In this document: positions 15,713-30,108 of the stretch, piece by piece
Numbering within the stretch: the first letter of the stretch is position 1
Layout of the letters: each line of letters opens with the position of its first letter
Virus record (IMG/VR): IMGVR_UViG_3300010376_000101
Location: 1-30,108 of that record
Reading direction: 5' to 3' (one strand)
Origin: a virus
Lineage: Duplodnaviria > Caudoviricetes
DNA length: 30,108 bases
The notes under the pieces: generated by a model
What the model was told of the DNA's origin: nothing
Seen by the model: the letters and a program-made list of their open reading frames with translations, nothing else
Databases searched by the model: none
Program-made: the position numbers and the translations under genes

Positions 15713-16042
15713 ATGCCCTCAGTCCTGACCTCGACTCCCGCCGCTGCCGTGGGGCAGAGCAAGGTGGTCGTGTACACCGCGCCGACGAGTCCGGCCACGA
15801 CTGCGACGATCATTGGCTGCACCTGCTCGAATACCGGTGCAGCAGTCCAGCATGGCAGCGTGTTCATGCGGCGCGCCGCTGTTGATTATTCAATCATCAC
15901 CAACGGCGTCATACCGGTGGGCAACACGCTCGCCGTAGTCGGCGAGGAAGGCAAGACCGTGCTGCAGCCGGGCGACTCCATCGTGGCAGTCGTGGACGTG
16001 GGCACGATGGATGTGATTGTGTCGCATCTGGAGCAAACGTAA
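15713..16042 (+). CDS. Small virion/tail protein (109 aa)
   Basis: VYTAP...ATIIG...KTVLQPGDSI pattern; coupled to the next gene (TAATG). Confidence 0.65.
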   Translation: MPSVLTSTPAAAVGQSKVVVYTAPTSPATTATIIGCTCSNTGAAVQHGSVFMRRAAVDYSIITNGVIPVGNTLAVVGEEGKTVLQPGDSIVAVVDVGTMDVIVSHLEQT

Positions 16043-17166
16043 TGGCCTACATCGGTCCGCGCCCCTTCCCGTTCTTCGTGCCGCCGGGTGCGTTGCTGCC
16101 GGGCTCGGTGAACTGGTCTGCGTTCGATGCGCCGACCGTCGCCGCGATGACGGCAAACCGTAACCGGATCATCAACGCAGAGTGTCGTATTGCGCAGCGC
16201 GGTGGCAGCGTAGTCGTTGGCGCGAACGGTAACTTCTTTGGCGGTCCTGACCGGTTTCAGGCTACCATCGGTGCGAGTGCGGGCGGCCAGTACACGCAGT
16301 ACGCCGGGAACACCATGACTTATGGTGGCTTTCAGCGCTACACCGTTCAGCAAACGGTCAATACACCGATTGCCAGCATGGCGGCTGGTGCCTACTGGTC
16401 CGGCATCCAGCAGACCATTGAAGGTTATAACGTCTACGACTTTATTGGCCAGCCATGCACCCTATCGTTCCTGTTCCAGTCGAACGTGACGGGTAATTTC
16501 AGTGTGTCGATGTCGGATGCGCCAGCGGCAAACTCCATTGTCAGCACCTTTAACTATCCCGTGGCGGGCGTGGTACAGCGCGTGGTGCTGAACTGGCCGC
16601 CCGTTGCTGCAAATATTCCGAACACCAGTGCAGCGGGCCTGATCCTGCGCATCGCGCCGTTGAATCAAGCGCAGTACCAGACCAGCACCTTGAACGCGTG
16701 GCAGGTGGGTAACTTCCTGACCGCTGCGAATGCAGTGAACTGGGGTGCGGCGGCGAACAACTACATCGCCGTGGCTGATCTGCAACTGGAACTCGGTTCG
16801 ATTGCCACGTCGTTTGAACGTCGCTCGATCCAGCTTGAACTGTTGACGTGCCAGCGCTATTACAACGCAATGGGTCAACTGTTTGGTGCCGGGTATGTGC
16901 AGAACAGCTTGACCAGCGCGGTTTATATCATACCGATTTCGCCGGTCATGCGCGCTGCGCCGAGCGTTACATTCTCTGGCACGTTCACGTTTGGCGCAGC
17001 GACGGCAGGTGGGCAAAACCTGCCATCTACTTCGATGGTTAACGCGTCGGTGACACCGGCTATGTTGTACGTGCAGGCAACCGGACTGTCCGGTGTTGCT
17101 AGCGGGCAGGGTACGATTCTCTCGGGCCTCGGTGGTTCGGTGATCGCTTTGAGCGCGGAGCTTTGA
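16042..17166 (+). CDS. Tail fibre / receptor-binding protein, paralogue 1
   Basis: MAYIG start; RNRIINAECRIAQRG...LQLELGSIATSFERRSIQLELLTCQRYY...SAEL architecture. Confidence 0.8.
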   Translation: MAYIGPRPFPFFVPPGALLPGSVNWSAFDAPTVAAMTANRNRIINAECRIAQRGGSVVVGANGNFFGGPDRFQATIGASAGGQYTQYAGNTMTYGGFQRYTVQQTVNTPIASMAAGAYWSGIQQTIEGYNVYDFIGQPCTLSFLFQSNVTGNFSVSMSDAPAANSIVSTFNYPVAGVVQRVVLNWPPVAANIPNTSAAGLILRIAPLNQAQYQTSTLNAWQVGNFLTAANAVNWGAAANNYIAVADLQLELGSIATSFERRSIQLELLTCQRYYNAMGQLFGAGYVQNSLTSAVYIIPISPVMRAAPSVTFSGTFTFGAATAGGQNLPSTSMVNASVTPAMLYVQATGLSGVASGQGTILSGLGGSVIALSAEL

Positions 17167-17167
17167 C

Positions 17168-18454
17168 ATGGCCTACATCGCCGGTAACCCGCTCCTGTCG
17201 GTCGCGCGCCAGTTGACAGAAGGGGCTGCGCAGCAAGGGCAGAATACCATCCCGATTCCGGGTGGCATGGTGCCCACCATGAACGATGTGTTCGTGGGTG
17301 GTGCGTGCCTGTCGCAGGGCGACTACGACGACAGCGACGGTGCGCAGATCAAGCTCACGAAGGCGATGAATGCAGGCACGCAGTTTCGCGTGGTGAGCTA
17401 TGCGCCTGGGCAGACCGTACAGCCAGTCGGCGGGCAGCTTGCAGGCTTTCGCAACCGGCTCGTGAACGGCGATATGCGCGTGGCGCAGTACCAGTCGAGT
17501 GTGACGAACAACGCAGCGGGTAAGGTTTATGGACCTTACGACCGCTGGGCAACGAACACCAGCACAACGGGTGCAGTGACTGCACAGTTTTTGGCGATGC
17601 CGTGGGGGCCGTTCACGCGCGCCGGTCTGCAGGTAAAGGTTGTGACTGTGCCAACCTTTACTGGCAACCTGTTCTGGCAGCCGGTTATGCAGTTGCTGGA
17701 AGGTTTCGATACCTACGATCTGGTGGGTGCGCCGCTGACGCTATCGTTTTTGTTCCAGTCAAATGTCGCCGGATTGTATTCGGCTACGCTACAAGATTCG
17801 GGCACGCAGTCGTGCACGATGACGTTCAACTACCCCGTGGCAGGCGTCACGCAATGGGTAAGCATTACGTTTCCGACGCTGCCTACGAGCCTGACCATTC
17901 CGAACTACGGTGCGATGGGTATTACGCTGCGTATTGGCCAGATCGGTGTGGGTAGCGCTGTTTCACCCACAGTCGGGCAGTGGATTTCAGGCACGACCAT
18001 TATTGCAGCGAACAGTGTGAACTGGGCGACGGCGGTCAATAACTATATCGCTGTTGCAGAGGTACAGCTTGAAGCTGGCGCACTGGCGACAGCGTTTGAA
18101 CGTCGTCCGATCCAGTACGAGATGTCGCGTTGTCAGCGCTACTATTGCAAGTCCTATGCGTATGGAAACTACGCAGGTACAAACACCGGGCTTGCTAACG
18201 GCATCATTGAGGCGACCGGTAACCCGGCCAACGCGACGATTGCCTCGATTCGCTTCCCGGTGCAGATGCGCACGCTGCCTACGGTAACAGTGTATGACGG
18301 TGCCGGTGTGGCAGGACAGGTTTCAGTGGACGGCGTGGTAGCAGGCACATCGGCAGGTGTTTCGATAGATAACCAGTCCGAGAATGGTTTCAAGGTTTTT
18401 GCTGCGAGCCATTTCCGGGTGAGCGCGCATTACACCGCACAGGCAGAGCTATGA
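17168..18454 (+). CDS. Tail fibre / receptor-binding protein, paralogue 2
   Basis: MAYIAG start; FRNRLVNGDMRVAQ...VQLEAGALATAFERRPIQYEMSRCQRYY...QAEL. Confidence 0.8.
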   Translation: MAYIAGNPLLSVARQLTEGAAQQGQNTIPIPGGMVPTMNDVFVGGACLSQGDYDDSDGAQIKLTKAMNAGTQFRVVSYAPGQTVQPVGGQLAGFRNRLVNGDMRVAQYQSSVTNNAAGKVYGPYDRWATNTSTTGAVTAQFLAMPWGPFTRAGLQVKVVTVPTFTGNLFWQPVMQLLEGFDTYDLVGAPLTLSFLFQSNVAGLYSATLQDSGTQSCTMTFNYPVAGVTQWVSITFPTLPTSLTIPNYGAMGITLRIGQIGVGSAVSPTVGQWISGTTIIAANSVNWATAVNNYIAVAEVQLEAGALATAFERRPIQYEMSRCQRYYCKSYAYGNYAGTNTGLANGIIEATGNPANATIASIRFPVQMRTLPTVTVYDGAGVAGQVSVDGVVAGTSAGVSIDNQSENGFKVFAASHFRVSAHYTAQAEL

Positions 18455-19437
18455 CACAGGCACAGAACCTCGCTGACCTGTCGCAGCTTTTCACGAAGTG
18501 GCCGCTGCCGTTTCGGAACAAGCTTATCAACGGCAAGTTTCCGATCTGGCAGCGCGGTGGTGGTCCATTCAATGTGCTGACCGGCACCGTGACTTACACA
18601 GTGGACCGCTGGTACACGTGGACTAATGGCGCGACGATTACGGTAGACCTGAATCCGCCGTCGCCGCACCCCGGCTTCGCGCAGAGCTACCACGCGAAGG
18701 GTGCGGCAGGCACTACGCGTATTAATGTCGGTCAACGCATTGAGTCAGCGAATGCGTACGACTTGGCCGGGCCGGATGGTCAGGGTCAACTATGCACAGC
18801 AAGTGGCTGGATATGGTCGTCACAGGCGATCACACCGCAGTTCCTGATCTATATCCCAGGTGCGAGTGATAACTTCGCAACTACCACAGTCGTCACGAAT
18901 GTCGTGTTACCGCCGCTCGTGGCGAATACATGGACATACTTCAGCACTACGTTCATGTCGAGCAGCCAGTATCACCTTGGCTGCCAGTACGAAATTGATT
19001 TTCCTGTGACGGGCGCAGGGGATATTGCCGTAACGGGTTGCCAGCTTGAATCTGGTTCGGTCGCTACGCAGTTCGAGCATCGCCCGTGGAATCTTGAAAT
19101 GTACATGTGCCAGCGCTATTACCAGCAGGTTAATAGCGGTAATCCACGGTGCTGGGGTGGTATAACCGGCGCGAATACGGCGGACTTCATTCACTACCCG
19201 CCAGTCGGCTTCCACCACGCACCGACCGTAGGGCTGTACCAGAGTGGCGCAGGCACGCTGATGGAGTCAATGCCGTTTGTACAGGCCATTACAGCAACGT
19301 TTACGCTTAGTAGCGTGCACGTACCTGCGGTTGGGCCGCTCGACTTTCAGTTACAGGTTGCCAGTCCGTCGCCTGCCATTACCCTTGCATGGCCAGCCAC
19401 ATGGCTGGGTGGCCTGACCTTGAACGCGGAGCTTTAG
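18451..19437 (+). CDS. Tail fibre / receptor-binding protein, paralogue 3
   Basis: FRNKLINGKFPIWQRG...CQLESGSVATQFEHRPWNLEMYMCQRYY...NAEL. Confidence 0.8.
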   Translation: MTQAQNLADLSQLFTKWPLPFRNKLINGKFPIWQRGGGPFNVLTGTVTYTVDRWYTWTNGATITVDLNPPSPHPGFAQSYHAKGAAGTTRINVGQRIESANAYDLAGPDGQGQLCTASGWIWSSQAITPQFLIYIPGASDNFATTTVVTNVVLPPLVANTWTYFSTTFMSSSQYHLGCQYEIDFPVTGAGDIAVTGCQLESGSVATQFEHRPWNLEMYMCQRYYQQVNSGNPRCWGGITGANTADFIHYPPVGFHHAPTVGLYQSGAGTLMESMPFVQAITATFTLSSVHVPAVGPLDFQLQVASPSPAITLAWPATWLGGLTLNAEL

Positions 19438-21558: not shown

Positions 21559-23493
21559 ATGCCCGCCGTCAAGCTGGAAAACTTTCAGGGGATCATCCCG
21601 AAGGCCCCACCGACCCTCCTGACCCCCCAGCAGGCGCAGCGCGCCGACAACATCCGGCTGTACGGCGGGGAACTCCTGCCGTGGCGGAAACCTTCGTTTG
21701 TTTACAAACCTGCCAACGTCAATCCCGTGGTGTCGATCTACCACGTGATTAACACGTCCAACGGGCAGGACCGGTGGCTCACGTTCGAGGCGGATACGGA
21801 CGTGCAGCTTGGGCCGGTGCCGAACCCGCAGGAACAGCGCCTGTACATGACGCAGGCCGGGCACGCGCCCATGAAGACCGACTGGGCGATGCTCTCGACC
21901 GGCAGCGGGCCTTACCCTGCCTCGACTGTACCGATGGGGGTGCCGAACCCGGCTACCGCCCCGACGCTCGCGGCGAACGGCACGGGTAGCGGCACCGCGA
22001 TCACGCGTGCCTACGTGTACACGTGGATCAACATGTTCGGCACCATCGCCGAGGAAACCGGGCCGTCCAACGCCGCGACGGTGAACTGGCAGAGCGGGCA
22101 GACCGTGACCGTCTCGGGCTTTCAGGCTCCCCCCGGCGCGCCGCAGAACATCCAGTACATCCGCATCTACCGCACGGTGACGGGCACCGACCCGACGCAG
22201 GTGAACTACTACGAGGTCGCGCAGATTCCCGTGGGCACCGCGAGCTTCGTGGACAACATCAGCGACGCGGCGATTGTCGGCAGCCCGCTCTCGACGGTCG
22301 GTTGGGGGCCGCCGCCCACCGACCTGCAGGGGCTCGTGAGCCTGCCCAACGGCATGCTGGCAGGCTGGTCCGCCAGCAATCAGGTGTGGTTCTGCGAGCC
22401 GTACAACCCGCACTCGTGGCCTGCGAACTACATGCAGCCGCTGTCGTTCGACATCGTGGGGCTGGCGGTCTACGAGCAGAACCTCGTCGTCATGACGAAC
22501 ACCTGCCCGTACATCCTGACCGGCATCCACCCGGCGCAGATGACGGTGACCCGCATCAACCTGTGGGAGCCATGTGCCTCGAAACGCTCGATTGCCGGTG
22601 ACCTGTCGGGCGTCCTGTACGCATCGCCCAACGGCATTGTCGGCATCAGTTCGATGGTGCAGGGCGTGATTACCACGGGGCTGATGCGCCGCGACGAATG
22701 GCAGAAGTGGTTCGATGCTGTGCACATGATCGGCGCGATCTACAACGCACAGTATTTCGGCTTCTTCCCCGACACCAACGGCGACAGCTTCAGCGGCGGC
22801 TGGGCCATCGTGCTGGACAAGGCTGACAACCCGTACATGCAGGCGTCGGTGAACATGGACGTGGCGAGCTTCGCGCACGCGCCGCCCTGTGGCCGCATGG
22901 ACCAGTACGCCACCGCCGTGGTGGTGGACCGCGTGAACGCGGCGATGTACTACGTCGATCACCTCGACAACACCATCTACCAGATCGACGGCGACCCGCT
23001 CGACTACCAGATCGGCGACTGGTACAGCAAGCGCTTCGTGCTGGCGCGGCCCGTGAACATGGCTTCGATCCAGACCGATGCGGACTACGAAGCAGACGAC
23101 ACGCCGCTGTATCAACTCGTTGCACGCTACGAGACGCAGAACCAGCAGTGGCTGGCAGCGCATACGAGCGGCCCGTTCGGCGGGACACTGAACAGCACGC
23201 AACTGAATGGTGGCGGCAACCTCACCGGTCTTGGCAGCACGATGGGTACGCTCAATGGCAGCTACCAGATTTGGGACGTGCCGAGCATCTTCGACTTCCG
23301 CAGTGTGAACGTGAAGGTGTACGCCGACGATCAACTGGTCTTCACGTATAACCCCATCAGTCTGGACCCGGTGCGCATGCCTGCGAACTACAAGTGCCGC
23401 ACGTGGGAAATCGAGATATCGGCGAACTTTCGCGTGCGCACCTGTGCGCTCGCCACGTCGATGTTTGAACTTGGCAAGACAGGACAAGGGTAA
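21559..23493 (+). CDS. Tail nozzle / tail tubular protein B-like (644 aa)
   Basis: FQGIIPKAPPTLL, RAYVYTWINMFG..EETGPS and WFCEPYNPHSWP motifs; size and position before the ejection genes. Confidence 0.75.
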   Translation: MPAVKLENFQGIIPKAPPTLLTPQQAQRADNIRLYGGELLPWRKPSFVYKPANVNPVVSIYHVINTSNGQDRWLTFEADTDVQLGPVPNPQEQRLYMTQAGHAPMKTDWAMLSTGSGPYPASTVPMGVPNPATAPTLAANGTGSGTAITRAYVYTWINMFGTIAEETGPSNAATVNWQSGQTVTVSGFQAPPGAPQNIQYIRIYRTVTGTDPTQVNYYEVAQIPVGTASFVDNISDAAIVGSPLSTVGWGPPPTDLQGLVSLPNGMLAGWSASNQVWFCEPYNPHSWPANYMQPLSFDIVGLAVYEQNLVVMTNTCPYILTGIHPAQMTVTRINLWEPCASKRSIAGDLSGVLYASPNGIVGISSMVQGVITTGLMRRDEWQKWFDAVHMIGAIYNAQYFGFFPDTNGDSFSGGWAIVLDKADNPYMQASVNMDVASFAHAPPCGRMDQYATAVVVDRVNAAMYYVDHLDNTIYQIDGDPLDYQIGDWYSKRFVLARPVNMASIQTDADYEADDTPLYQLVARYETQNQQWLAAHTSGPFGGTLNSTQLNGGGNLTGLGSTMGTLNGSYQIWDVPSIFDFRSVNVKVYADDQLVFTYNPISLDPVRMPANYKCRTWEIEISANFRVRTCALATSMFELGKTGQG

Positions 23494-23723
23494 TGAGCGC
23501 AGCGGAAAAGAAGATGTCGATTCCATCAGCGAATCAGGGCACCCTCCAGAACACGCAGGAAGCCCAGCGCTTTCTGGAGGCGGTCAAGCAGAATGTTGAC
23601 GTGATAACGGGACGGGCACATGGCACGACCGAGATTGATACGATCCCACAGGGCGCTACCCTCGTTACCGTTATCGCCCGAATCAACCAGATCATCACGC
23701 GGATTAACTCATCGGGGACGTGA
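23493..23723 (+). CDS. Small helical protein following the nozzle (76 aa)
   Basis: TAATG coupling; FLEAVKQNVDVITGR. Confidence 0.7.
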   Translation: MSAAEKKMSIPSANQGTLQNTQEAQRFLEAVKQNVDVITGRAHGTTEIDTIPQGATLVTVIARINQIITRINSSGT

Positions 23724-23724
23724 C

Positions 23725-24186
23725 ATGTATGTAACGGGCGAGCAGAAGATGGAGTATTACCAGTTTGCGTCGAAGCTGCTGGAGTGCAGGCTGCGCCCCA
23801 CCTATGACTCACGCATCCTCACCACCATTGACGAATTCGGCGAGCCGCTGGGCTGCATCGTGTACCGCTACATCACCGACAAGAACCTTGAGATGATGGT
23901 GGCGCTGCCGTATGGTGCGGGCGGCGTGTCGCGCGAGTTCGTGCACCGGATGTTTCACTTCCCCTTCGTGCAGCTGCGCCTGCCTCATATCTCGACCGTT
24001 GCGGACGAAGCCAACGAGGCGAGCGTGAAGCTGACACTGCACGTAGGTTTCACCATCGAAGGACGCATGCGCCGTATCTACAACGGGCGGGACGGCATCA
24101 TCTTCGGGATGTGCCGCGACGAGTGCCGCTGGATCGGCCCACGCTTCAGGAGCGAACATGGGCAAGAAATCCACACCGTCGCCTGA
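23725..24186 (+). CDS. GNAT-fold acetyltransferase-like protein
   Basis: Start moved to ATG 23725; NEASVKLTLHVGFTIEGRMR is a RimJ/RimL-type GNAT motif; same position as T7 gp13 / P22 gp14. Confidence 0.75.
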   Translation: MYVTGEQKMEYYQFASKLLECRLRPTYDSRILTTIDEFGEPLGCIVYRYITDKNLEMMVALPYGAGGVSREFVHRMFHFPFVQLRLPHISTVADEANEASVKLTLHVGFTIEGRMRRIYNGRDGIIFGMCRDECRWIGPRFRSEHGQEIHTVA

Positions 24187-25180
24187 CGCGGGTATCGGCA
24201 CCGCTGCACAGCAGATGGCGAACATCTCGCAGGACGAATGGAATTGGTTTCAGAACCAGTACCTGCCGAGCCAGAACGCGCAGCAGCAGGTCGTGCAGGG
24301 CACGGCCAACACCATGCTGTCGAACTATCTGAACAACTACATTCCCAACATGGAGCAGCAGTACACGACCACTCAGCAGCAGGCGGGTCAGGTCGAGGAC
24401 CAGCAGCTTGCGCAGATGACCGCGCAGGCGCAGCAGGCCCAGCAGCTTTACGGCGCGTTCGATACGAGCTACCTGCCGCTGTATGGCCAGATCGCAAGCG
24501 AAGCGGCGGCCAAGGGCGGGCAGGCCGATCAGGACTATCAGGCGATGCTCGCACGCGGCGACGTGGCACAGCAGTACGCCAACGCGGCTACCCAGCAGCA
24601 GCAGTACCTCGCGCAGTACGGCATGAGCCCCACGAGCGGCATCGCCGTGGCGGGCCAGCGTCAGACCGCGATCAGCCAGGCGGCACAGGAGGCCGCCGCG
24701 CAGACCGCCGCGCGTCAGGCCGCCGTGAACCTCGGCTGGACGTGGCAGACCACCGCCGCGCAACTCGGGCAGGGGCTGCTGTCGGCGGGTTCGACAGCCT
24801 ACGGCAACGCTGCGACCGCCGGTCAGAACGCCGTGAACACCGCGATCAACACCATGAACGCAGGCTCGAACGTGACTGCCGGGTATGCCGGTGCGCTGAA
24901 CACCGCCGCCGCGCCGATCCAGTCGGAAGCGGCCATCGCCAACCCGCTGTCGCAGGGCACGCAGGCCGCCACGGGTGCAGCGTCCGGCAGCGCCACGGCC
25001 CTGAACCAGCAGTACCAGACCCAAGGCCAGATCGCGGGTGCACAGCAGCAGGGCTTCGGCTCGATGGTGGGCGGCCTGCTGGGCGCGGCGGGCACCATCG
25101 GCGGCGCGATGCTCGGCGGCCCGGCGGGCGCGGCAGTGGGTGGTTCGCTCGGCAGTGCTGCGGGCAAGGCCATCGCGTAA
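24158..25180 (+). CDS. Ejection (DNA transfer / internal virion) protein
   Basis: MGKKS start, Gln/Ala-rich, C-terminal Gly-zipper hydrophobic segment; AGGAG SD. Confidence 0.75.
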   Translation: MGKKSTPSPDAGIGTAAQQMANISQDEWNWFQNQYLPSQNAQQQVVQGTANTMLSNYLNNYIPNMEQQYTTTQQQAGQVEDQQLAQMTAQAQQAQQLYGAFDTSYLPLYGQIASEAAAKGGQADQDYQAMLARGDVAQQYANAATQQQQYLAQYGMSPTSGIAVAGQRQTAISQAAQEAAAQTAARQAAVNLGWTWQTTAAQLGQGLLSAGSTAYGNAATAGQNAVNTAINTMNAGSNVTAGYAGALNTAAAPIQSEAAIANPLSQGTQAATGAASGSATALNQQYQTQGQIAGAQQQGFGSMVGGLLGAAGTIGGAMLGGPAGAAVGGSLGSAAGKAIA

Positions 25181-25190
25181 GGAGACGATC

Positions 25191-27521
25191 ATGGCATACG
25201 GCAGTTTTGGCGAGGGCTTCGCCTCCGGCATGCAGGCAGGCAGCGAGGTCGGCCAGCGCGCGATGAACGCGTACTACGGTGCGTATGAGCGCAATGCCAA
25301 CGCTGCCGTCGCTGACCAGTTGAGGAACCCCGGCACGTCCACCAATACCTTCACGCCCGACCAGCTTCAGCAGCAGTACGGCGTGGATGCGGATACGGCC
25401 AACCAGATTTTTCAGGTCGCGCAGAACGATCCGAACAAGGCGCTGCAGATGGTCAACGCCTTGCAGTCTGCAAAAACCAGCGGAGTGCAGCAGGGCACTG
25501 CCATTGCAACGGGCGACACCGCTGGGGTGACCACGGCCCCTGTGCCGATGACCTCGCCCGCCTCGCAGGCCATCCCCGGCGCTGTAGCCCCCACAGCGGG
25601 CTCGCCGGTCATGGCTGATACATCCGGTGTCGGCGGCGTCACGGGCGGCACCACGGGCGCGGGAGGCCCTGCAGCGCCGCCTGTTGCCATCCCCACGACC
25701 GGCGGTGCGGGCGCAACGGTTGCGAATGCGCCGATACCCGCACCCGGCATGACCGCCGGTCCCCTCACGCAGGCCATCGGTGAAGGTGCACCGACGCCCC
25801 CGAGCGTTGCCGCTCCAGCGGCAGCACCTCCTTCGGCCATCCCTGCCGGTGCCCCGCAGGCAGCGGGTGGTGTGCCTGCAGCCGGTGCGCCTGCGTCCGG
25901 CTTCAACATTGGCATGGTCCCCGAGGCGTATCGCGACGCGTTCGCGCAGGCCATGAAGGATCACCCCAACGTGCCGCCCGGCGTGGTGGCGTCGATGATC
26001 CAGCAGGAATCAAGCTGGAATCCGAACGCCGTGAACAAAACAACCGGCGCGACCGGCATCGGGCAGTACATGCCGGACACCGCACAGCGCCTCGGGCTCG
26101 ATCCGCATGACGCTGCCGCCAGCATCGAGCAGACCTTCGCCGACTTCGACCGGCGGCTGCAGGGCGGCAGCAGCGTAACCGACGCCATCAAGGGGCACTA
26201 CGGCGGCGACGACCGCAGCCAGTGGGGGCCGAATACTGCCGCCTATGTCGGGCAGGTCGCCCAGCACTACGGCCAGTACGGTGTGGATTCGAGCAACCTC
26301 GCAGCGCGCCCCGCCACGCCGACCACGGCGGCTGCGCCCGCTGGCGGCACCACGCCGCAGGGTCCGCAGCGCGACGTGCTGAACGCCGATAACCGCATCG
26401 CCGAGCGCCCGTTCTACGGCACGGGCTCGACCCTGAAGCTGAACAGCGACGGCTCGATTTCGATCCAGCATCCGAACTCGACGGCGGACGGCTGGCGCAA
26501 TGCCGCGCAGAACTTCCTGCGCTTCGGCCACATGGCGGAAGCCGGTCAGGCGATGGACCGCTACTACGAGGCGCGCGCCGACGAGGTGCAGCAGCACGTG
26601 CGCGACGTGATGACCTCGAACCTGACCGATGACCAGAAGGTGGGCGCGCTGCACAACACTACGGGCCTGCAGATTTACAAGGTGGGCGACGGCCAGTATG
26701 TGTCACCGGAACTGACCGGCGCGCCGGACGCGAACGGCCAGTACCGGCGGCTGTCGATGAACGACCTGGGCAACTACGCGACGGCGCTGGCCACCAAGGG
26801 CGGCCTGATGGCGTATGACCAGCACCAGCAGCAGATGGCCACGCAGCGCGCGCAGGCTTACGAGGCGACGCGCCGGGGCGATTACTACGGCGCGATCATC
26901 CCGAGCCGCGAGGACATGGCCGCCGCGCGTCTGGCCGCACGCGGCGGTGCAGGCACCAAGCCGCCCGAAGGCAACATGGGCGAGTGGAACAAGACCGACA
27001 ATACGGTGCCGGTGCGCATGCCCACCGAGGACGGCAACGACTTCGTGACCCGCACCATGACCACCAACCCGCTGGGCGATGGACTGGCCAGCCAGCAGGC
27101 GGTCAGGCAGCTTGCGGACGACAAGGCCGAACTCGTGAAGAACCCCGACCCGCGCGTGAACGGCGCGGGCCAGTTCAAGATCGTGCCGGTGATCCGTGGC
27201 CTGCAGTACGATCCGCGCTCGAACCAGACGCAGGTGCCGCGCACCGCGCAGGGCAAGTACGATACAGGCGCGGGCGAACTCGGCTACCAGTTGCAGGTCC
27301 AGCAGCCGGACGGCACCTACCAGACGGTCGCCATCGACCCGCGTGCGGACAACAACACCATCTACCGGGGAGCCGGAGCCGGGCGCTACCCGACACTGAA
27401 GGCTGCGCAAACTGCAATGGATCGAGTCCAGAAAGTCACCACGCCGATACCCGGCCTTGCCCCGTCATCGGTAGGCTCCGTGCTGGGCGCGATCCCCGCG
27501 CCCGAACAGCAGCTTTACTGA
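25191..27521 (+). CDS. Internal virion protein with lytic transglycosylase (SLT) domain
   Basis: Start moved to ATG 25191 (TAAGGAG SD); SLT motifs MIQQESSWNPNAV, GATGIGQYMPDTA and HYGG...TAAYV. Confidence 0.88.
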   Translation: MAYGSFGEGFASGMQAGSEVGQRAMNAYYGAYERNANAAVADQLRNPGTSTNTFTPDQLQQQYGVDADTANQIFQVAQNDPNKALQMVNALQSAKTSGVQQGTAIATGDTAGVTTAPVPMTSPASQAIPGAVAPTAGSPVMADTSGVGGVTGGTTGAGGPAAPPVAIPTTGGAGATVANAPIPAPGMTAGPLTQAIGEGAPTPPSVAAPAAAPPSAIPAGAPQAAGGVPAAGAPASGFNIGMVPEAYRDAFAQAMKDHPNVPPGVVASMIQQESSWNPNAVNKTTGATGIGQYMPDTAQRLGLDPHDAAASIEQTFADFDRRLQGGSSVTDAIKGHYGGDDRSQWGPNTAAYVGQVAQHYGQYGVDSSNLAARPATPTTAAAPAGGTTPQGPQRDVLNADNRIAERPFYGTGSTLKLNSDGSISIQHPNSTADGWRNAAQNFLRFGHMAEAGQAMDRYYEARADEVQQHVRDVMTSNLTDDQKVGALHNTTGLQIYKVGDGQYVSPELTGAPDANGQYRRLSMNDLGNYATALATKGGLMAYDQHQQQMATQRAQAYEATRRGDYYGAIIPSREDMAAARLAARGGAGTKPPEGNMGEWNKTDNTVPVRMPTEDGNDFVTRTMTTNPLGDGLASQQAVRQLADDKAELVKNPDPRVNGAGQFKIVPVIRGLQYDPRSNQTQVPRTAQGKYDTGAGELGYQLQVQQPDGTYQTVAIDPRADNNTIYRGAGAGRYPTLKAAQTAMDRVQKVTTPIPGLAPSSVGSVLGAIPAPEQQLY

Positions 27522-27533
27522 CGGGAGCCAGCC

Positions 27534-30108
27534 ATGTCTGATGTCGTTGGCAACCCCTTCATGATGGACCCTTCGGCCTACGTACCATCGCCGGGCGCTG
27601 CGCCGCAGGGCGCGGTCACTGGACCGCCGCCGGGCATGGCCGTTGCGCCGTGGCAGGCCCCACGTCCCATCCCGGTTCCTGCGGGCGCTGTACCGACGCC
27701 CGGAGTCGGTCGTCCTGACTTCGTAACGACTGCACCCAGCGTGCAGCCCGCCAACATGTCCGACGACGCTGCCGAGGCAATGCGCAAGGCCGGGATGATG
27801 GACGTGGGCAGCGAGTACGCGCACACCTATCAGGACACGTCGCCTAACGCGCAGGGCCAGTGGAGCGACGTGGCGCGCGCTACCGGCCAGCGGCTGGTGG
27901 GTGCTGCCGAGGCGTTGTACGGCACGCTGGCGGATTCGCCCGAGGCGCGCCAGAACGCGGTGATCGCCGCACAGAACGCGCAGGCGTATGAAGCCAACGC
28001 CGCGCGTCAGGGCATGCCACAGGGACTGTCGGACATCCACGGTGTGGGCGACCTCGGCAAGATCATCGGCAAGGGGCTGATCGAGGGTGCGGGCAACATC
28101 GCGCCGATCGTCGGTGGCGGACTGGTGGCCGGTATTCCCGGCATGGTGGCGGGCGTCGCCGCCGACGCGCTGGTGCACTCCGGCACGAACCTGATGGATC
28201 AGGGTGCAGCCGGTCAGGCAATGGATGTTACGAGCGCGCTGGGCTACTCGATTCCGCAGTCGCTGCTCGATGTCGGCACCGCCGAAATGACCGGGGGCTC
28301 CGGTATCGGCGCGTCGATGCTCAAGGCGATCAGCGGCGGCGCGCGGGCCGGTGAGGCAGCCGCCGCTGGCGGCGCGAACTGGCTGATGCGCATGGGCGCA
28401 GGCGCGGCGGGCGAGGCCGTCGAACAGGCGGGCGTGGGTGCCGGGCAGGCTGCCCTGCAGGACCTCGCGACGAACCGCGACGTGACCTCGCATGACGTGC
28501 TGGAGGGGGCCATCCTCGGCGGCATGGCGGGCATCCCGTTCGGCGCGGCACGCGGCTTCCACGCCTCGACCGCGAAGCCGCCCATTCCCGAGGTCGAACC
28601 GACCAACCTGCTGCAGGATCAGGCAGGCACCGTGCTGCAACTCAAAGCGCCTGAAGCGGTTCCGCAGCTACCGGCACCGGCTGAACGCGGCGCGGCACCG
28701 CAATTGCCTGCACCCGCCGAGGTGCCGCGCCTGCCCGCGCCGCTGGGCTATGGCCAGCCGATGGTGGGGCCGCCGCCCGAACTGGTCGGACCGCACCCCT
28801 ACGCGCCGCAGCCGCAGACCATGATGCCCGCCGCGAACGTGCCGCGCACGCCGCCAGCCGGTGCCGATCAGGCTGCCATCCAGTCGCTGCAGGGCATCAC
28901 CGACACCCGTGGTCTGCCGCCGCCACCGGCAGGCGGTGCTGCCCCCGGTGGCCCGGCATCGCCGGTAGCGCGTGGTCCTGCATCGCCCATGGGCGGACCC
29001 GCCACACTGCCGATTGCACGTCCCGGCGAGGTGCCGCCGCTCGTTGGTCCCACCCGCCCGATTGAGGTGCCGCCCAGCAGTGCAGGTGGAGGCCCGCGAC
29101 CGGCGGCTCCGACCCCAACTGTACCAGCCATGCCGCCGCGCGCACAGGCCGCACTCGACCGCGCTGCTGCCTCCGCTGCCGCCGACCGCGCAGCCGCTGC
29201 CCGGCAGAGCGCCGCAGCAGCGCTGGCACAACCGCCTGTGATCGAGCGCACGCCCGTGCCTGGTGGGCGCACGCCCGAGGAAGCTGCACGCATGCAGGTC
29301 GCCGCCGCCCCCATCGTGGACACCATGCGCCAGGCATGGGCCGACCACAACAACGGCAGCGGCGCGGGCTTCGTGCAGGCGATGGGTAGCGTGCTGCAGC
29401 AGGCACGCGGCGACGCCGACCGCGCCGCGCAACTGATCCGCGACAAGGCCAGCAGCCGCACCAGCGTGAGTTACGACCGCCTCGACGCCATGCATCAGGC
29501 ACTGACCGGCGAGACGATGGAGCAGCATGCGCAGGGGCTGGCAGGACCGCCGTCGCCTGCCACCAGTGCACGCCAGCTACGCGTGGACTATGCGGCGACC
29601 GATAACCCGGCCACCCGCGACGCCCTGAACGCGGCGCACCAGCAGATCACCGGACAGGGCATTGATGACTTCAACGCTGCGCGTCGCGAGGCGCACGCCA
29701 CCGGCACTGCCGAAGCACCCGACACGGCGGCCAGCGTGCGCCAGCTACGCGTCGATTACGCCTCGACGGAAGACCCCGCAGCGCGTGAGGCGCTGAACCG
29801 CGCCCACGAAGCGCTCACCGGCCAGTCCATCGAGGATTTCAACGCGGCACGCCGTGCCGCACACGAAGGAGAGGGAAATGCCCCTGAAGTCCGGCAACAG
29901 CAGGCAGACAATCTCGGAGAACATCTCGGAGATGGTGAAGGCGGGGCACCCGCAGAAGGAGGCGGTGGCGGCGAGCCTGTCGAACGCGCGGCGAACCGGC
30001 CCGAAGCCGTTCAAGCAGCCGAGGGAGTCGGCCAACCCGTTCGCCCGCCTGCCGAAGAAGCCGCGCCGCGCCCGGTAAGCGCGATCAGCCGCTGGATGCA
30101 GACGGCAC
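27534..30108 (+). CDS. Large internal virion / ejection protein (partial, >858 aa)
   Basis: Hand-translated with no stop from ATG 27534 (GGGAG SD) to the window end; Gly/Ala-rich membrane-like segments, Pro-rich linker, internal repeats. Confidence 0.85.
29559..29864 (+). repeat. Internal coding duplication, period 168 nt (56 aa)
   Basis: [46 protein letters not shown] vs [46 protein letters not shown] (32/46 identical by hand). Confidence 0.9.
29878..30078 (+). CDS. Nested small basic protein, 66 aa ([39 protein letters not shown]...), in the +1 frame inside the large ejection ORF
   Basis: AAGGAG SD 6 nt before the ATG; 64 of 66 codons end in G/C; resembles the recurrent phage MPLKxGxS...IS.NI...G.PQKQAVA family. 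Confidence 0.8.

Follow-up and report, generated by a model that had tools for sequence, protein, structure and literature searches.

A small phrog_2423-family gene nested out of frame in a probable giant ejection-protein gene of a podophage

What is known of nested genes in phages comes mostly from single cases, such as Rz/Rz1, and the usual account is that a new frame arose within an old gene. The end of a contig from a soil podophage raises the question of whether the order can be the opposite, that is, whether a complete small gene has been taken into a much longer one with both frames still in use. The window analysed here is the whole stretch of 30,108 bases (IMG/VR record IMGVR_UViG_3300010376_000101), a single contig with structural matches to terminase, portal, capsid, tail fibres, internal virion protein, GNAT and SLT. 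An earlier note, made from the sequence alone, had proposed that an intact small gene is trapped at this end in a linker of a giant ejection protein.

The longer frame starts at an ATG at 27534 and, as had been stated, runs stop-free to the end of the window (27534..30107, plus strand), giving at least 858 codons up to the contig edge. It comes after plus-strand genes for an internal virion or nozzle protein (21559-23493, phrog_511), a GNAT acetyltransferase (23620-24186, phrog_4470) and a virion protein (24158-25180, phrog_8003), and is preceded by that of a virion protein with a lytic transglycosylase (SLT) domain (25191..27521, plus strand; PF01464, E 6e-10; phrog_2013). On the basis of the protein encoded at 21559, the closest GenBank phages were Bcep22, Itty13, POI1126 and Ralstonia phages (∼31% identity), and the gene order of the 21559..25180 block is that of Bcep22 gp67-gp75. 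This is the position of the DarB-like gene in Bcep22-like phages, and the outer ORF occupies a place in gene order equivalent to those of Bcep22 gp75, JC1 gp69 and phi24B gp47. The DarB-like JC1 gp69 has been detected in virions (PMC9144972), and phi24B gp47 was identified by proteomics and proposed to be an ejection protein (bioRxiv 10.64898/2026.04.10.717836). Because synteny with Bcep22-like phages puts a giant DarB-like gene here, the outer ORF is expected to be giant, and it likely encodes a DarB-like, polyvalent ejection protein. Unlike DarB-like proteins, however, its visible 858 residues gave no match to methylase, helicase or LPD domains with PHROG and Pfam profiles. The visible part also had no PHROG match of its own, no significant pairwise match among 30 giant proteins and no match in GenBank phages; no homologue of its C-terminal part was found among longer proteins, and the single match of that part was weak (P0026, E 1.7e-4). 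Elsewhere in the window, three tail-fibre-like paralogues lie in tandem at 16042-19437, each matching phrog_4492, and a 342-codon frame at 24238-25266 was dismissed as a shadow frame.

Within the outer ORF, in its +1 frame, lies a separate ORF of 66 aa (29878..30078, plus strand, ATG to TAA). As previously described, it has its own Shine-Dalgarno sequence, AAGGAG (29866..29871), which is located 6 nt before the ATG and is read as Glu-Gly-Glu in the outer frame. The pairing energy of this sequence (-8.8) is the same as that of the portal gene (-8.8) and similar to that of the capsid gene (-8.9), and it ranks second among the 37 ATGs within the outer ORF. The inner gene is wholly contained in the outer ORF and carries its own start signals, as expected of a nested same-strand pair. 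Across the same bases (29877..30077), the outer frame encodes 67 residues, including 12 Asp and Glu, 12 Gly, 12 Ala and 9 Pro, with large hydrophobic residues at only 2 of the 67 positions. The acidic peptide quoted in the earlier note is present in this translation, and by its composition the linker is probably disordered or flexible.

A recount of codons confirmed that 64 of the 66 inner codons end in G or C; the remaining two end in A and none in T. The expectation from the codon usage of the phage was 53.5 (P about 1e-4). Over the overlap, the outer frame turned to A/T-ending codons as had been noticed, with only 36 of 67 codons ending in G or C (37 of 68 in another count) compared with 50.8 expected from its amino acids, and the lowest of 5000 draws was 38. 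After the inner stop, 9 of 10 outer codons again end in G or C, a recovery that is visible although ten codons are too few for much weight. On the other hand, the stop-free outer frame, which had been offered as evidence, proved to be mostly a mechanical result. Each outer codon takes the third base of an inner codon as its first, and thus an inner gene without T-ending codons leaves an outer frame that cannot contain a stop. Given the inner protein, an open outer frame has a chance probability of 0.16-0.21, and given the outer protein, a 66-codon inner frame has one of 0.72; neither is beyond chance. Thus, neither open frame counts as evidence alone, whereas the codon pattern exceeds chance.

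An assembly indel, by which the outer ORF would stop before the inner gene, had been named as a possible refutation and was not seen. Run X1, possibly the source sample itself, yielded a contig of 3326 bases that matches 29721-30108 without any difference or gap, which speaks against an assembly indel near the inner gene. As to the contig extension that had been suggested, the DNA continues ∼2.9 kb beyond 30108 by the length of the X1 contig. The outer frame itself was followed to 30108 and thus extends at least 10 codons past the inner stop, up to the contig end. A metagenome scan for a longer contig recovered only the contig of the window (L134), and runs X2 and X3 contained no piece covering the inner gene. 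The gap in X1 coverage at 29552-29720 carries no weight.

Residues 1-44 of the inner protein match positions 1-44 of the 52 positions of phrog_2423 (E 4e-13), a PHROGs family listed as function unknown, whose conserved N-terminal core it shares. It matched 23 database proteins, and all 23 of these candidates were relatives. All 11 invariant family columns are present in the inner protein, in an alignment that includes the query, and residues 41-66 have no good match in any relative. The protein is basic (15 Lys and Arg against 4 Asp and Glu), and structure prediction gave a two-helix hairpin (residues 9-21 and 26-40) followed by a low-confidence basic tail (mean pLDDT 81). Its nearest Atlas clusters were viral proteins of 49-63 aa. 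It did not match DUF6496 (PF20106) at E 0.1 and did not reach the gathering cut-off; two of its relatives were above the cut-off, on positions 36-58 only, the last 23 of that model. No solved structure was found by sequence, nor by fold at E 0.001.

The earlier suggestion that the inner peptide resembles a small basic family usually found free-standing agreed with the distribution of phrog_2423, a widespread family whose members are mostly independent genes of late operons. In scans without a codon filter, copies nested in a long ORF numbered 0 of 13, 0 of 120 (for 40, only short flanks were available) and 0 of 19; in contrast with the copy in the window, nearly all members found in this way were free-standing or N-terminal in longer proteins, and nesting is a minority state of the family. 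Of 31 GenBank matches, the five inspected were all annotated as separate genes, located in head modules, after an endolysin, at the end of a late region and among tRNAs. One free-standing copy is gp338 of Caulobacter phage phiCbK. Among 80 phrog_2423 loci, 22 encoded at least 100 aa. The family was observed as the N-terminal part of longer proteins at L010 (4925-6280), L015, L018, L025, L049, L063 and L082, and one copy is the N-terminus of a head maturation protease. A scan of 42 neighbour or fusion proteins gave named matches that were mostly portal, terminase, capsid, adaptor, tail and other structural proteins, together with two GroES and one endolysin, and 13 proteins had no match. From these contexts we tentatively propose that the inner protein might be a basic helical hairpin made late in infection, with a role in assembling the head or in binding DNA within it.

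Nesting of this family was nevertheless recurrent. IMG/VR was scanned with search patterns in which T was disallowed at many third positions. Eleven further contigs carried phrog_2423 inside a giant ORF, 3 of the 37 loci from a first pattern scan (L198, L201 and L204) and 8 of the 97 from a further scan (L255, L268, L274, L275, L279, L296, L304 and L314). Such a pattern skews the codon usage of the inner genes it recovers, yet it has no means of producing long outer frames; at the 11 loci, the outer frame stays open over 383 codons or more on the upstream side and over 337 to 1311 or more on the downstream side. Homologues of the inner ORF, which the earlier note had suggested should be checked for their context, are thus usually stand-alone and on these contigs nested. 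Six loci were excluded from the nested set, including four with short or shadow frames (L178, L244, L253 and L310), one on the same contig as L201 (L322) and one with 300-base flanks only (L324). PHROG profiles matched four of the 11 outer proteins (L198, L275, L279 and L296) to the DarB-like phrog_10089 and gave no match for six; an SLT domain is present in one.

The 12 nested copies (this phage and the 11 others) allowed the two frames to be compared. Inner identity was 0.53 and overlapping outer identity 0.31. Variability by base was lowest at the outer wobble position (0.35, compared with 0.42 and 0.52 for the others), whereas in an outer-only control the wobble position was the most variable (0.61). 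Silent differences were found at 778 of 1651 identical inner residues. Because the inner frame is better conserved, the outer wobble is least variable and silent differences are common, these comparisons indicate that the inner frame is under purifying selection across the 12 copies. The frame-specific selection analysis that had been suggested was thus answered in part: the inner frame is conserved more, as measured among distant copies rather than as dN/dS among close relatives. Outside the pattern-fixed part, T-ending codons in eight nested copies numbered 9 of 235 in a raw count without amino-acid correction (host T3 0.08-0.45), and the inner frame appears to have been recoded so that the outer frame stays open. 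A tree was built from the cores of 13 nested copies and of 70 out of 196 free-standing ones. It required 11 changes for the nested copies, which came together as a single group in 0% of 200 bootstrap trees and clustered no more strongly than shuffled labels (67 of 500 as low); this tree rests on 38 columns, with which a single origin of the nested copies is still compatible.

The bases in front of the inner gene provided a further link to other phages. A helical motif, L-x-x-x-H-x-x-L/I-T-G, is present in three copies in the outer frame (29481..29822, plus strand; starts 29481, 29625 and 29793), of which the last two sit in a 56-codon duplication (starts 29571 and 29739) and the third ends at the Shine-Dalgarno sequence and ATG of the nested gene. 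This in-frame duplication (29571-29876) lies immediately upstream of the nested gene; the two long contigs of X1 end either side of its first copy, and the copy number may vary. A profile of the 130 residues preceding the nested start in 12 related giant proteins, searched among 298 targets, matched the outer protein with E 5e-7 and a score of 24.4, compared with 7.0 for the best of 500 block shuffles, with single domains being weak (i-E 0.01-1.2). The match provides moderate evidence that the outer protein is homologous to the giant ORFs of these relatives through the helical repeat. In the 12 relatives, a different nested family of ∼80 residues starts at the same position, and the giant frame continues through the nested gene for hundreds of codons or more; one of them, L160, has LPD39 and a DarB-like C-terminal region (phrog_10089) further on. 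Because the profile match ends at the nested start and the relatives carry another family there, the nested site is likely homologous while its cargo differs, with phrog_2423 here and an unrelated 80-aa family in the relatives.

We also measured how often giant ORFs contain such genes, using 36 giant ORFs (83,460 codons) and 141 control ORFs (85,476 codons). Shine-Dalgarno-led ORFs of at least 40 codons numbered 69 in the +1 frame and 0 in the +2 frame of the giant set, which includes four nesting-selected loci, near-duplicates and a few non-ejection ORFs; there were 12 in the +1 frame of the controls and 18-38 in 30 synonymous shuffles. When the codon signature was included, 49 were found in giant ORFs, compared with 5 in controls and 2-9 in shuffles. 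Three nested +1 families were recurrent: one of 80 residues, one of 50 residues that is basic (weak phrog_1375) and one of 102-107 residues. For the first two (families A1 and B) in AT-richer hosts, an open outer frame had a chance probability of at most 0.002 in 20 of 20 copies. The third is found in the DarB-like genes of Itty13, POI1126, PEp14 and Atu_ph08, and Bcep22 and Gervaise have a nested ORF of similar size. GenBank feature tables of the checked phages list the giant gene only and none of the nested +1 ORFs. The giant gene of 933W has no convincing nested ORF, and thus nesting is not universal.

Several additional observations were made on these genes. In each of six cultured phages, the DarB-like gene contains an unannotated, Shine-Dalgarno-led +1 ORF of 102-107 aa, located at L211:14338-14658, L214:30588-30908, L215:26794-27108, L216:26896-27216 and L217:31020-31334 on the plus strand and at L218:34200-34505 on the minus strand. 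The last of these is the 102-aa ORF of Atu_ph08, a phage of Agrobacterium tumefaciens C58. Three of the six have weak TnpV scores under the cut-off, and four match the phrog_938 C-terminus; TnpV membership of this ∼105-aa family was rejected, the best E value of 4e-4 being under the cut-off. Nested families of ∼80 aa (no family match) and ∼50 aa (basic, weak phrog_1375) occur at L135-L167, for example at L141:17690-17929 and L141:18803-18955, in giant genes with a host GC3 of 0.19-0.87, and some giant genes hold at least three nested ORFs. Shorter Shine-Dalgarno-led +1 ORFs with the codon signature, none of which had a family match, are present at L211:12559-12720, L216:25192-25368, L217:28782-29009, L171:17523-17669 and L172:18770-18943. 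In the Itty13 record, a giant plus-strand ORF of more than 4100 codons (L214:25574-37909), DarB-like by BLAST to L275, is unannotated, and three opposite-strand ORFs are listed instead.

Taken together, 29878-30078 is a complete phrog_2423-family gene with its own Shine-Dalgarno sequence, lying one base out of frame in a longer ORF, and both frames are likely translated from one late message. The earlier proposal of an intact small gene trapped in an ejection-protein linker is supported by the nesting of the same family on 11 contigs and by selection that appears to act mainly on the inner frame. It is unlikely that the small gene is instead an ordinary, separate one and that the outer gene ends nearby, through a lost stop or a short tail, its frame being open only because the inner gene lacks T-ending codons. 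Such an arrangement would agree with the chance level of 0.16-0.21 for the open outer frame and with the 26 of 80 free-standing copies that directly follow a long ORF in the same frame, but the giant frame of the 12 profile relatives reads on past the nested gene, phrog_2423 is fully nested on 11 other contigs, and synteny calls for a giant gene at the outer ORF. The inner GC3 above the prediction from phage usage (P about 1e-4) and the G/C endings of 9 of the 10 outer codons that follow the inner gene point the same way.

It is more improbable still that the inner ORF is a silent relic of a captured gene and that only the outer linker is used. The intact start, stop and Shine-Dalgarno sequence, the last being among the strongest of the phage, the retention of 11 of 11 invariant family columns (query in the alignment) and the conservation of the inner frame above the outer one in nested copies outweigh the absence of a good match in relatives for residues 41-66, which a relic would account for. 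Least credible of all is that a +1 ribosomal frameshift gives a truncated ejection protein a second, basic C-terminus encoded by the inner frame, in place of a separate small protein. In its favour, fusions of phrog_2423 with other proteins are frequent (at least 100 aa at 22 of 80 loci), and the different, ∼105-aa nested family found in four GenBank phages aligns with the final 100 positions of the long phrog_938, so that such a fusion is annotated somewhere. Against it, the inner gene has its own Shine-Dalgarno sequence and an ATG at the normal N-terminus of the family, known phrog_2423 fusions are N-terminal rather than C-terminal, and the GGGAAAT before the ATG, which we take to be a heptamer of the minus-1 type, runs into a stop four codons later and does not occur in any of the 11 further nested copies.

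For the preferred reading, a complete gene inside the giant ORF, the following course of events can be suggested. The inner frame would yield a small basic protein and the outer frame what is likely the flexible acidic linker of a giant ejection protein. One late transcript through the giant gene would serve both starts; no internal promoter was detected in a scan of 27400-30108, which gave 0 promoters and 0 terminators. We infer that the small gene is the older frame, across which the giant protein came to be read. If no codon of a gene ends in T, its shifted frame is stop-free and consists mostly of G/C-starting codons (Gly, Ala, Glu, Pro, Gln and Asp), and it could form a tolerable spacer in a giant protein; a small gene could thus be absorbed with neither product lost. 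A polyvalent gene that is growing might absorb a small neighbour when the gene in front is read through, or a small gene might be inserted into it; T-ending codons would be selected against once this had happened. Among free-standing loci, a long ORF in the same frame enters the first codons of the small gene in 26 of 80, many of which are kin, compared with 3 for the other frame, and at L179 and L181 it extends 35 codons into the small gene. These loci are possible precursor states. The long ORFs that enter the small gene in the same shifted frame at L179 (2480-5455) and L181 (3956-7105, minus strand) are large glycosyltransferase ORFs.

A broader view, which we find plausible though a little short of probable, is that giant ejection genes are hidden operons. 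The linkers would be shifted-frame shadows of captured genes, a slot consisting of a Shine-Dalgarno sequence and an ATG after a helical domain would swap cargo between lineages, and the nested proteins would be made and packaged together with the giant protein.

With regard to known systems, the layout of the inner and outer genes is the same as that of the lambda-type Rz/Rz1 spanins, in which a whole small gene lies in another frame on the same strand within a larger gene (PMC9144972, PMC10269572). Bcep22 has such an embedded spanin pair, gp81 within gp80. However, Rz1 is the lipoprotein partner of its host gene, whereas the inner gene here belongs to an otherwise free-standing family, its host encodes a giant virion protein, the host frame looks newer, and the site carries different genes across phages. 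In addition, the inner protein is basic and has no hydrophobic leader, whereas an embedded spanin pair has an inner lipoprotein with a signal peptide within a membrane-anchored outer protein of the lysis module, and neither frame matched spanin families in PHROG profiles. A separate gene within another gene, or its out-of-frame reuse, is also treated in PMC8788219, where IS1414 appears only as a cited title; unlike the present locus, the cases in the available text of that source are not phage virion genes, and no site there recurs with different cargo. A search of the open literature gave no account of genes nested within giant genes of this kind, and the passages cited above on DarB-like proteins list none.

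The order of events usually assumed for nested phage genes appears to be reversed here, and recurrently so, with old small genes absorbed by giant injected proteins and kept working. If true, this would account for the odd acidic linkers of giant ejection proteins and would provide a simple way for overlapping genes to arise, as a consequence of the genetic code itself. It would also add unannotated proteins to the cultured phages Atu_ph08, Itty13, POI1126, PEp14, Bcep22 and Gervaise.
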